The notes under the pieces are model-generated. The model did not search any database. It was not told the origin of the DNA and saw only the letters and a program-made list of their open reading frames with translations. A DNA stretch of 64,000 bases from NCBI GenBank assembly GCA_019058245.1, contig JAHPZJ010000020.1:40936-104935 (forward strand), in the 5' to 3' direction. Positions within the stretch are counted from its first letter, which is position 1; the number at the start of each line of letters is the position of its first letter. Positions 2,483-40,996 of this stretch are shown here, in pieces. The DNA is from Promethearchaeota archaeon (lineage in GTDB: Archaea > Asgardarchaeota > Lokiarchaeia > Sigyniarchaeales > SOKP01). The position numbers were made by a program, and so were the translations under genes.

Positions 2483-2878
2483 TTTCCTGTACTTTTCTAA
2501 TTCTTATTAAATATATTTCTTACTTGTAATATTGATAAAGAAAAATAAGAAAATAATATAAAATTATCAATTTCGAACCGATAATATAGAAAATTTTTTT
2601 TTGAAAAAATTTCTTACAACAATGTTTTAACGTTATTGAAAGAGATCTTTCAAGATTTATTTAATTTTAATAATATTAGATTATTTAATATAGTTATATA
2701 AATTTAAAAAATTCCCAGATTAATAATCCAAAAGTTTATGGGATTTATTCGAAACGATATTAATAAATAGTAGAAAAATAACTTTAAATATTAGTTTCTT
2801 TTTGATTTTATAGAATAAGTATCAATAATTTAATCTTTTACAATAATTTATTAAATAAATAAAAAAATCTAAAGTACT

Positions 2879-3904
2879 CTAGATGAGGAGATAAAGTTTA
2901 ATATTAAACTAGTTGTTTGTGGTGAAGGAAAAGTTGGGAAAACTTCAATAATAGATGCTTTTTTAGGTAATGAAGTTCCTGAACAATACTTACCAACAAT
3001 CGGTAATGTCACTAATAAAAAAGAATATTTATTAAAGGAGAATGGTAAATCACTTAAAATTTTGATATCGATATGGGATTTAGGTGGTCAAAGATCTTTC
3101 AATCCATTTAATCCTTCAATATATACTAATACAGATATTGCTATTTTAGTTTTTGATTTAACTAGACCAGAAGAGACTTTAAAAAATTTAAAGAGAGAAT
3201 TCTTAAAAAATTTAAATCAAAATTCTGAAGATTTCTTATTACTTTATGTTGGAAATAAAATAGATCTACTTGAAAAAGATAATTCTTTAAAAATGGCAAT
3301 TCAAGAGTTCTTTACTCAAAATGATCATCTAATGCTAACATCCGCCAAAACAGGAGAAAATGTTGCTGATTGTTTTGAATTGTTATTATCAACTTATTTA
3401 AGAAAAGAGGAAATTTTAAATCCAGATCTAATTCTTGATAATCCCTCTAGTGTGTTTCATAATCTCATTGGCAAGGATGAGGAGAAATTAAAAAATAAAC
3501 TTATTAAAATAACTGAGATTGAGTCAGTCCTAGAAAAAATAAAACCGATACCAAAAACAGTAAAAGAAGAGAAAGTTATTGAGGAAGAAGCGAAGGAAGA
3601 TAAAGAAGTAAAATATTATGAATTTCTTAGAAAAGAATTAGATCAAAATGAATTACAAAGATTAGAAGTACTAGATCGTTTTTTAATAAGTTTATCAGAA
3701 TTAGATGATACAATAAAACATATTAAAAAATCAAAAACCACATCCGTGATTGGACTAATTGATGATTTAAAGAAAATTTTAATAAATGCTAAGAAAGAAT
3801 TTAAAAAGAATGCTAATTTAATGATAAAATTAAATTCAGAAGAATTTGAATTAATAAAGGTTATCTCCAAGTTTGATGAAGAACAATCTTTACTAAACCA
3901 ATAA
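2879..3904 (+). CDS. Rab/Ras-like small GTPase with a C-terminal helical extension; true start lies upstream of the ORF-track call and is non-canonical (exact codon uncertain)
   Basis: The frame upstream of 3062 reads DEEIKFNIKLVVCGEGKVGKTSII...YLPTIG (G1, G2), followed by DLGGQ (G3), NKID (G4) and SAK (G5). In-frame TAA at 2870-2872 and no ATG/GTG/TTG before 3062. Confidence 0.8.
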   Translation, partial: LDEEIKFNIKLVVCGEGKVGKTSIIDAFLGNEVPEQYLPTIGNVTNKKEYLLKENGKSLKILISIWDLGGQRSFNPFNPSIYTNTDIAILVFDLTRPEETLKNLKREFLKNLNQNSEDFLLLYVGNKIDLLEKDNSLKMAIQEFFTQNDHLMLTSAKTGENVADCFELLLSTYLRKEEILNPDLILDNPSSVFHNLIGKDEEKLKNKLIKITEIESVLEKIKPIPKTVKEEKVIEEEAKEDKEVKYYEFLRKELDQNELQRLEVLDRFLISLSELDDTIKHIKKSKTTSVIGLIDDLKKILINAKKEFKKNANLMIKLNSEEFELIKVISKFDEEQSLLNQ

Positions 3905-3971
3905 TAATCATGTGTTTAAAGGTTAAAACAAATAAAATTTAACAAACCATTATCATTACAAAGTGTATAAA

Positions 3972-4844
3972 ATGCCCGAAGAAGTATCTCTAAAAGATTT
4001 TCAAAAATTAAAGGATCAATTTAATAAATTTGAACAAAAATTTAGTGATTTATTTAAAAAATCTGAACAAAAATCAACTGACCAATTTAATGATATTGAG
4101 AAGAAATTAACAGTTCAGGTTGATGATATAAAAAAATATTCAACCGAAAATATTAGCAAATTAGAACAAAAAGTAAAGGACGATTATACATCATTAGCTC
4201 AAAATATAGATGATCTAGAAGAAAAAATAGATACAAAAATTGAAACTCTAGCAAATACGGTTGGAAAAGAATTAAATGAAAAGTTTGCAAGTTTAGAACT
4301 AAAAATTGAGGGAATCCATAAATTATTAAATTCCGAAATTGAAAAAAAAATCAAAAATATTGACCAACAATTGAATGTCTATGTAAGTAGTCTCAAAAGC
4401 GATTTAAAAACTATAAATGATGACCTAAAAAAAAATAAGGGAGAATTTTCTACTAGCTTAAAAACTGTAAAAAAAGATATTAAAGCGAAGGAAGAAGGGC
4501 TTTCAGATATGATTAAAAGTTTTGATAAAAAAAATATAGAATTTAAGAAAGAGATTAAACCTGTTATTGAAAACCTTAAAAGACAGCAAGATTTAGTCAA
4601 AATTACTGTTGATATACTGAAAAATCAGATTTATGAGAGTGCTAAAGAATGGATTAATGACGAAATAAAATTAGCTTGTAAGGGTAAAGAAAAAGAAATT
4701 TTGATGAATTTATGGATTGATGAGATGAAAGAAATTATTGCAAACATAGATAAATTAAAGGAAATGCATCCTAAAGAATTAAAACTTCATATAAATGAGA
4801 TTTCAAGCACTATTGAATCATTTAAAGAGAAGTTTATAAAATAA
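3972..4844 (+). CDS. Long coiled-coil/amphipathic helical hypothetical protein
   Basis: K/E/L/I-rich heptad pattern throughout; ATG at 3972 preferred over GTG at 3963. Confidence 0.7.
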   Translation: MPEEVSLKDFQKLKDQFNKFEQKFSDLFKKSEQKSTDQFNDIEKKLTVQVDDIKKYSTENISKLEQKVKDDYTSLAQNIDDLEEKIDTKIETLANTVGKELNEKFASLELKIEGIHKLLNSEIEKKIKNIDQQLNVYVSSLKSDLKTINDDLKKNKGEFSTSLKTVKKDIKAKEEGLSDMIKSFDKKNIEFKKEIKPVIENLKRQQDLVKITVDILKNQIYESAKEWINDEIKLACKGKEKEILMNLWIDEMKEIIANIDKLKEMHPKELKLHINEISSTIESFKEKFIK

Positions 4845-4956
4845 ATCTTTTTTTAACTTATTTTAACAATAAGATAATTTTGAATACTAAGAAAATCTTT
4901 TTTAAACATTTAATTAGAACTTTTTAATTATAAAATAACTTGAAATAATTTCAAAA

Positions 4957-39591: not shown

Positions 39592-39675
39592 TTCCCAATA
39601 TTTCTTTTTTTAATTTATCAACATAACTTTATTATTTCTAGCTTTATTTTGCAACCTTAAAAATTATCAATAAAG

Positions 39676-40233
39676 GTGAAGATTATACCTATAATAATAC
39701 CAAGTCCTAAAACAGGGAAAAAACCAATAATTCATGAGTCTGCCTATATTGCTCCTACCTCAGTAATTATAGGAGATGTTACAATAGGGGAACATTCAAA
39801 TATATGGTTTGGAGCAGTTCTACGAGGTGATTGGGGGCAAATTAAGATTGGTAAAAATACAAGTATCCAAGAAAATGTTACAATTCATATTGAAATGGGA
39901 ACATATGTTACTATTGGCTCAAATTGCGTAATTGGACACCATGCAATGATTCATGGACCAACAGAAATAATGGATGGATGTTTAGTTGGAATTGGGAGTA
40001 ATGTACTCCATAATACTAAAATGAATGAAGGATCAATGATCGCTTCTGGGGCTGTAATTACTAATAAAGAAGTTCCCCCCAGACAATTATGGGCGGGAGT
40101 TCCAGCGAAGTTCCTGAAAGATTTTCCAGAAAATGAAGAATTTATTGCGCAAAAAACGGCTAATGATTACATCATCAACGGACAAGCTTATAGGGAATTT
40201 TTTAGAAAGAATCCAGAGTTCGCTAAATTTTAA
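39676..40233 (+). CDS. Gamma-carbonic-anhydrase-like (YrdA/PaaY) hexapeptide-repeat protein
   Basis: IIGDVTIG, IWFGAVLRGD, IQENVTIH, IGHHAMIHG, GVPAK; the start may be ATA 39685. Confidence 0.9.
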   Translation: MKIIPIIIPSPKTGKKPIIHESAYIAPTSVIIGDVTIGEHSNIWFGAVLRGDWGQIKIGKNTSIQENVTIHIEMGTYVTIGSNCVIGHHAMIHGPTEIMDGCLVGIGSNVLHNTKMNEGSMIASGAVITNKEVPPRQLWAGVPAKFLKDFPENEEFIAQKTANDYIINGQAYREFFRKNPEFAKF

Positions 40234-40258
40234 TTTTTTTTTTAGTTTTATCATAAAA

Positions 40259-40996
40259 TTATAGTGAACATATGCAATCCTCATTCTTTACAATATCAAT
40301 AATATTAAACCTTAAATCTATTAGGTTAACCATAAGAAGTTTATTTTCCAAATTAGGAAGTCCTAATGTTGTTTTTATTACTTCTAAGGCTTCTAATGTT
40401 CCTAAGATTCCAGGTGTTACCCCAATCACTGGTAAGGGCCCTATATTGGGAGGTGTTTCCATAGATGAAAAAACACATTGATAACAAGCAGAAACTTTTG
40501 GATTAATAGTTATGATTTGACCATAAAAATCTTTTATTCCCGCAATTACACATTTTATGTTATTCTCCACAGCAATTTTATTAACTAAAAATTTAGTTTT
40601 AAAATTATCACTGCAATCCACAATAAAATCATATTTTTTTTCCTTTAGGTAATTCTTGATGGAATTATCATCAATGTAATCTTTATAGATGTTAATTATG
40701 ACTTCAGAATTGAGTTTTGTTAAAACTTCTTTTGCGGATTTGACTTTTTCTATTCCAATTTGAGTTTCATTATAAAGAATTTGTCGTTGCAGATTAGAGA
40801 TATCTAAAATATCATCATCTATAATAGTAAGTTGATTTATTCCTGCGGCTACAAGGTATAATGCAAATGGACTACCTAAACCTCCACATCCAATTTGAAG
40901 GATATTTAACTTAGAAATTTTTTCTTGTCCTTTCTCTCCAATAAAGGGAGATATTATCTGCCTTGAATATCTTTCCTTTTGTTTTTCAGTTAAGAT
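40259..40996 (-). CDS. ThiF/MoeB/E1-like adenylyltransferase (245 aa), ATC start; the ORF track has only the C-terminal half
   Basis: The upstream frame reads (M)LTEKQKERYSRQI...GQEKI...IGCGGLGS...DDDILDISNLQRQ, continuing to DCSDNF, CYQC and a terminal CxxC. AGGTGA-TAATAA-ATC, with in-frame stops directly before ATC. Confidence 0.88.
   Translation of the reverse strand: MLTEKQKERYSRQIISPFIGEKGQEKISKLNILQIGCGGLGSPFALYLVAAGINQLTIIDDDILDISNLQRQILYNETQIGIEKVKSAKEVLTKLNSEVIINIYKDYIDDNSIKNYLKEKKYDFIVDCSDNFKTKFLVNKIAVENNIKCVIAGIKDFYGQIITINPKVSACYQCVFSSMETPPNIGPLPVIGVTPGILGTLEALEVIKTTLGLPNLENKLLMVNLIDLRFNIIDIVKNEDCICSL

Follow-up and report, generated by a model that had tools for sequence, protein, structure and literature searches.

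In a stretch of 64,000 nucleotides from a Promethearchaeota archaeon of the class Lokiarchaeia (GenBank assembly GCA_019058245.1, contig JAHPZJ010000020.1, positions 40,936 to 104,935 of the forward strand; hereafter the window), and in many other genes of the same genome, translation very probably begins at near-cognate codons (ATA, ATT, ATC, CTG or ACG) and not at the canonical ATG, GTG or TTG. These codons stand at normal distance behind a strong Shine-Dalgarno (SD) sequence, and initiation in this lineage is likely to be SD-anchored and of low stringency. The source (labelled G000) is a 76%-complete metagenome assembly of 3.09 Mb with 29% GC, and matching DNA was found in sediment and soil metagenomes. 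The host family, the largest Lokiarchaeia family sampled, and the host genus are labelled f1 and g1.

An earlier note, made from the letters of the window alone, had claimed that three intact genes, for a ubiquitin-like protein (Ubl), a ThiF/E1-like enzyme and a small-GTPase-domain protein, cannot start at a canonical codon, and that ATA is the probable start of two more, for a leucine-rich-repeat (LRR) and a hexapeptide-repeat protein. Both claims were borne out. At Ubl and ThiF the motifs, the spacing and the upstream stops are all as described (Table 1). The Ubl frame has TGA and TAA in frame directly upstream and its first canonical codon 55 codons downstream of the ATT; the ThiF frame has an in-frame stop directly upstream and its first canonical codon 125 codons after the ATC. 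In the GTPase frame the first canonical codon is a TTG, 63 codons in and past the P-loop. In all three, the first ATG, GTG or TTG comes after the Pfam domain has begun. Orthologues of the GTPase mostly start with TTG about 12-13 codons ahead of the P-loop, a position that aligns best with ATA 2891, and those in G205 and two other genomes have no canonical start ahead of the P-loop; ATA 2891 is the likely start, with ATT 2903 as the alternative. At the LRR and hexapeptide genes the annotated GTG indeed lies within the SD, and the orthologue columns described below strengthen the case for ATA. The five canonical starts with like geometry (48108, 33840, 60074, 18844, 36366) that had served as internal controls were verified. 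The prediction that gene callers truncate or miss such genes also holds here: the public ThiF record is a fragment of 120 aa against 245 aa for the full frame, and the public LRR and hexapeptide records start at the GTG inside the SD.

Table 1. Window genes with non-canonical starts and their SD sequences (window positions).
Feature	Position	Strand	Remarks
Ubiquitin-like protein (Ubl), 84 aa	24602..24856	-	start ATT 24856; Pfam ubiquitin, E 3e-9
SD-like GTGTGA of Ubl	24863..24868	-	6 nt before ATT; its own TGA and the next TAA close the frame
ThiF/E1-like enzyme, 245 aa	40259..40996	-	start ATC 40996; Pfam ThiF from residue 10
SD AGGTGA of ThiF	41003..41008	-	6 nt before ATC; inside 3' end of upstream Roadblock gene
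Small-GTPase-domain protein, 343-codon frame	2873..3904	+	after TAA 2870-2872; Pfam Ras from residue 12
Leucine-rich-repeat (LRR) protein	33994..36369	+	likely start ATA 33994, not GTG 33985 inside SD
SD AGGTGA of LRR	33983..33988	+	5 nt before ATA 33994
Hexapeptide-repeat (gamma-carbonic-anhydrase-like) protein	39685..40233	+	likely start ATA 39685, not GTG 39676 inside SD
SD AGGTGA of hexapeptide gene	39674..39679	+	5 nt before ATA 39685

The bases were checked against Logan contigs of four sequencing runs, drawn from two studies, which cover the codons at 24856, 33994, 39685 and 40996 (region 24000-41500). Three of the best-matching runs are possibly the source sample itself; X4 and X6 are not flagged as such. 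None of the listed contig differences falls on the four codons. Since independent contigs carry the same bases, these four codons are not assembly errors, a refutation that the earlier note had allowed for.

Start codons were counted over the whole genome in a forced set of stop-to-stop frames of at least 100 codons closed by the TGA of GGTGA (n=50). In these frames the stop codon is part of the SD core itself, so the start must be downstream. At spacing 6 the codons were ATG 10, GTG 3, TTG 6, ATA 16, ATT 5, ATC 2, CTG 2, ACG 1, AAG 1 and others 4. Near-cognate codons (26) thus outnumber canonical ones (19), with five of any other kind, and start-like codons dominate this spacing (45/50). At six other in-frame spacings 37-45 of the 50 codons belonged to the 'other' class. 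Near-cognates account for 26 of the 31 non-canonical codons at spacing 6 against a background of 15.6% (p 8e-17). When GGTG near the head of a frame was taken with spacings 6 and 7, near-cognate codons were found in 63 cases, canonical codons in 58 and other codons in 38 (p 4e-24 against off-spacings), and 47 of the 63 near-cognate cases have no in-frame canonical codon upstream. After background correction, SD matches of at least five bases precede about 72 near-cognate and about 140 canonical starts, a near-cognate share of 34%; the figure of 72 is a lower bound because only starts within ten codons of the stop were counted. Unfiltered genome-wide counts behind AGGTGA were too noisy for comparison between genomes and were left unused.

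The frames concerned belong to conserved genes. Pfam domains start at residues 2-8 of near-cognate frames, ahead of the first canonical codon, and a start at the next canonical codon would cost a median of 26 codons. Affected intact genes include Rag-type GTPases (ACG, ATA), NifU, ketopantoate reductase, Usp, an ETF with a 4Fe-4S domain (CTG), an AN1 zinc finger protein (CTG) and the ribosomal proteins uS14, uL15, uL16 and eL34; the first three of these ribosomal proteins each occur only once in the assembly.

Start columns of the Ubl, ThiF, hexapeptide and LRR genes were compared across about 30 species. At 80 orthologous Ubl loci the column holds ATT 41, ATG 31, ACG 5, ATA 1, GTG 1 and TTG 1, with at least 11 changes between ATG and non-ATG on the Ubl tree. 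Codons 2-55, the stretch that annotation would drop, carry 2002 synonymous against 125 non-synonymous differences. At 30 same-genus ThiF loci the column holds ATT 22, ATC 6, ATA 1 and ATG 1. The column of 39685 (29 loci) holds ATG 24, TTG 2, ATA 2 and ATT 1, and GGTGA is present in all three ATH cases (H being A, C or T); the column of 33994 holds ATT in four same-genus orthologues and ATG in two distant ones. Because these columns hold ATG or ATT, the ATA starts at 33994 and 39685 are well supported.

Near-cognate starts were found to depend on the strength of the SD. Genome-wide, enrichment was confined to SD matches of 5-6 bases, being absent at four bases or fewer and clear at six, where it was 3.5x for ATA, 3.9x for ATC and, on 3 cases each, about 9-10x for CTG and ACG. 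No enrichment at strong SDs was seen for AAG, AGG or decoy codons. Across species, the median SD duplex of Ubl is -7.4 kcal/mol at weak codons and -3.8 kcal/mol at ATG, and a GTGA or GGTG motif is present in 39/41 ATT orthologues against 13/31 ATG orthologues. At uS14 the duplexes range from -5.8 to -8.5 kcal/mol for ATH starts and from -1.9 to -4.4 kcal/mol for ATG starts. Coupling of termination and reinitiation was considered and rejected: the end of an upstream gene is found at 12/63 near-cognate and 24/58 canonical starts, and the overlap at ThiF occurs in 1/25 loci. At that overlap in the window the stop codon of the Roadblock/LC7 gene (40990-41376, minus strand) falls within ThiF codons 1-3.

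Of the initiation machinery, the factors aIF1, aIF1A, aIF2-beta and aIF2-gamma and the initiator tRNA were not found in the 76%-complete host assembly, from which the whole aIF1 neighbourhood is missing. Loss of aIF1 was rejected, as the factor is present in 19/22 same-genus and 59/68 same-family genomes. Its start column is ATH in all 20 f1 members (ATT 17, ATA 2, ATC 1; L251-L252, L255, L257-L261, L263-L265, L269, L271, L273-L279; L002, L010, L012, L014, L262 and L272 were also viewed). Strict forcing holds for 17 of these starts, most of which lie 9 nt after an in-frame TGA; in the other three a GTG falls within the SD-like motif. In two single-contig genomes of the same order and another family, the column holds ATG (G334, 6.04 Mb) and TTG (G211, 4.36 Mb). 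The basic loop and the ELQGDH-type motif of aIF1 are kept in most f1 members; the f1 protein has diverged further than its counterparts in other Asgard classes, and no residue change linkable to low stringency was found in aIF1 of f1. In several other Asgard families the aIF1 start is probably ATA or CTG, and in others GTG or TTG; a poor start on aIF1 may thus be widespread.

The initiator tRNA gene of the family member G145 (L301) is normal, with A1-U72, three G-C anticodon-stem pairs and a CAU anticodon, and an altered initiator anticodon is ruled out in this genome. A pattern search for the initiator gave no match in five genomes, and it was absent among the tRNAs recovered for G000 and G277. 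Many tRNA genes of G000 (also L291-L310, L323-L335) are interrupted at non-canonical positions by one or two introns, because of which ARAGORN miscalls anticodons. Reassignment of AUA to Met was rejected: internal ATA aligns to Val, Leu or Ile like ATT and ATC, and to Met in 8 of about 270 cases. Loss of the C-terminal Arg of uS9 was likewise rejected, since uS9 ends in Arg. The FLD domain of TiaS was found in 0/99 Lokiarchaeia genomes and not in the one f5 genome examined; one genome of f7 and one of f9 (two other Asgard classes; L280, L281) do have it, and no link between TiaS absence and initiation is apparent.

The near-cognate share was 52% in genus g1, a value inflated because loci were picked around ATH genes, and 43% in genus g3 of the same family. 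It was 14% in f1 ribosomal operons, 15% in G211 (p 0.024) and nil in G334. For non-Loki Asgard archaea the estimates are based on ribosomal and aIF1 neighbourhoods and gave 3%, which is not significant; isolated likely cases occur in other Asgard classes, counted after wrong-frame open reading frames and misalignments had been dropped. On present evidence the non-AUG start habit is best called a family-level trait, concentrated in f1.

The relaxed start-codon selection proposed in the earlier note is thus upheld by the tally behind GGTGA and the alternation of orthologue columns among ATG, GTG, TTG, ATH and ACG, both of which it had suggested as checks, and by the dependence on the SD; to the proposal are added the use of CTG and ACG and the need for a strong SD. 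Its further suggestion, inspection of the factors and the initiator tRNA, could be followed in part: aIF1 is kept and the G145 initiator is normal, and aIF1A, aIF2-beta and aIF2-gamma are missing from the assembly. In the mechanism that we propose, a strong SD (GGTGA core, at least five contiguous anti-SD matches) would hold the small subunit in place, with the P site occupied by the codon that follows after 5-6 nt. We infer that the ordinary Met-tRNAi (CAU) can pair there despite a single mismatch in the first or third codon position (NUG, AUH), or with ACG, and that the protein begins with Met. A normal initiator in the P site tolerates NUG, AUH and ACG but not AAG or AGG. Because the accepted set fits such an initiator, positioning fixed by the SD together with low proofreading is the simplest reading. 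Start-codon proofreading would be low, with about one third of strong-SD genes using near-cognates, and the strength of the SD would offset the weak codon. aIF1 probably keeps the set-point low, and its own ATH start is a candidate sensor for negative feedback, like that of bacterial infC; we rate the chances of such feedback as even. The fuller proposal, that f1 has a genome-wide low-stringency set-point held by AUU feedback on aIF1, that the SD and not the codon picks the start, and that at least 70 genes per genome form one stringency-sensitive set, is tentative, with the odds leaning somewhat against it.

Several points weigh against SD-anchored initiation of low stringency. In a few forced frames the start position is taken by GTT, AAC or ACT. 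Behind 6-base SDs the genome-wide enrichment of ATT is only 1.2x, and chance may account for some of the ATT calls. ATA 2891 of the GTPase, the likeliest codon, abuts its purine run and is without a well-spaced SD. The trade-off between SD and codon across species is suggestive and, after phylogeny, not significant, because only four independent pairs are well supported on the Ubl tree (3.2 of the 4 in the same direction). Moreover, the machinery is judged from relatives because the factors are missing from the assembly.

Weak starts may instead have been selected gene by gene under ordinary stringency to lower or regulate output, as at bacterial infC, cvfC1 and ccpN. The weak codon is indeed tightly held in some genes (ATH at 29/30 ThiF loci and 20/20 aIF1 loci), and near-cognate starts of Staphylococcus aureus yield about 10% of AUG output (PMC13009471). 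However, about 70 unrelated genes are involved, including single-copy ribosomal proteins needed in quantity, orthologues frequently switch with ATG, and the stronger SD at the weaker codon looks like compensation. We consider this explanation unlikely for the set as a whole; it is compatible with low stringency and may hold for aIF1 and ThiF. An additional initiator tRNA, or a single one with a modification such as that of C34 in mitochondria, reading AUA or AUH would fit the predominance of ATA in the forced set (16 against 5 for ATT) though ATT is commoner in the background, and AUA decoding is already atypical for archaea in the Lokiarchaeia, which have no TiaS (0/99). Yet transition bias from ATG likewise favours ATA, a change at the wobble position leaves the use of CTG and ACG unaccounted for, internal ATA is not Met and the G145 initiator gene is standard; such a decoder is improbable.

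The GTG inside the SD, in frame at spacing 5 and requiring a frameshift at spacing 6, could itself be the start. It is in frame at 33994 and 39685 and is used by the public annotation, but it gives no reason for start-like codons at spacing 6 (45/50), and orthologues carry ATG in that exact column, often without any GTG, which leaves this possibility very slight. As the codons are read from the DNA of a metagenome assembly, the genes might also be pseudogenes or encode truncated proteins, or the codons might be assembly errors or be edited to AUG in the mRNA. Contigs of other runs agree, however; the pattern recurs in dozens of species with a strong synonymous bias in the N-terminal stretch, uS14, uL15 and uL16 have no second copy in the assembly, and editing to AUG would require five different base changes. 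This group of explanations is largely refuted, and we give it almost no weight.

A number of other frames drew attention. On contig C10 of G000 an actin-like gene likely starts at an ATT located 7 nt behind GAGGTGG and 13 codons before the first conserved motif; the gene is not strictly forced, one canonical codon lying 37 codons upstream. A cytidylyltransferase-like gene on contig C13 (minus strand) has GTT, two mismatches from ATG, 6 nt behind GGTGA and reaches its first canonical codon only after 46 codons; in another forced frame, on contig C14, the codon is AAC. At uS3 of three genomes (G008, G169, G214; L031, L038, L039) an in-frame TAA lies two codons before the first conserved column, and therefore the usual uS3 N-terminus is out of frame with the rest; this may be a frameshift, an odd start or an alignment artefact. 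In the window, a 102-codon frame without ATG, GTG or TTG (52020-52328, minus strand) matches positions 41-125 of 376 of the GH127 catalytic domain profile and is probably a gene remnant. At 54671-55369 (minus strand), which has no family match, the called GTG directly follows a stop and resembles part of an SD, and an ATT a few codons downstream may be the start.

Near-cognate starts on this scale would mean that f1 gene catalogues are systematically truncated or lack genes, among them Ubl, the E1-like enzyme, Rag-type GTPases, ribosomal proteins and aIF1, and claims on the presence or absence of eukaryote-signature proteins are therefore affected. SDs have been described as rare in Lokiarchaea from the annotated starts of one cultured Loki genome (PMC7531240). 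Non-AUG starts may contribute to this impression, yet the signal is weak in G211 and G334 of the other family. Why eukaryotic start selection turned strict has been raised as a question (PMC4705826). A lineage with aIF1 and aIF2, pervasive near-cognates and an AUU-started aIF1 would offer a direct test of what sets stringency. If the low set-point is genome-wide and held by aIF1, no cell with eukaryote-type factors would be known to select its starts more loosely, and the lineage that does so is one of the nearest relatives of eukaryotes.

Mitochondria initiate at AUA and AUU and read AUA as Met. The present genome resembles them in its ATH start codons and AT-rich DNA; unlike in mitochondria, internal ATA is Ile, the SD directs initiation, and starts include CTG and ACG. 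Archaeal reviews give only AUG, GUG and UUG as starts (PMC7531240), and in the literature on archaeal and Asgard start codons, in which subscription journals were poorly covered, no paper was found on such a non-AUG habit at such scale. The SD core GGTGA, the 5-6 nt spacing and the canonical codons in the same geometry are those of standard archaeal initiation (PMC7531240). In Haloferax, ribosome profiling placed about 30% of putative alternative sites at near-cognates, which were set aside as possible false positives (PMC7261190), whereas in the present genome there are intact conserved genes whose main start, and the only one possible, is a near-cognate.

The closest parallels are bacterial. 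Escherichia coli infC starts at AUU, and in S. aureus infC, ccpN and citZ start at AUA and cvfC1 at AUU (PMC4705826, PMC13009471). As there, AUH codons stand at the correct spacing behind a strong SD, are kept in relatives and are overlooked by annotation. Unlike the four sites in S. aureus, about 70 are found here, roughly one third of strong-SD genes and ribosomal proteins among them, and initiation is of the archaeal, eukaryote-type kind with aIF1 and aIF2 instead of IF3. aIF1 discriminates against AUU in Sulfolobus solfataricus, and infC is autoregulated through its AUU (PMC4705826); aIF1 has been described as the archaeal factor rejecting AUU, and eIF1 is autoregulated through poor context (PMC6237735). 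As in the infC/IF3 and eIF1 loops, the gene of the fidelity factor has a poor start, aIF1 showing ATH in 20/20 f1 members, here at a longer distance, of about 9 nt. Unlike in those loops, genes other than that of the factor have weak codons too, aIF1 was read in relatives and the feedback is a putative one. Near-cognate starts behind a strong SD have thus been described before, in a few bacterial genes, and it is in scale and in its archaeal machinery that the present case differs.

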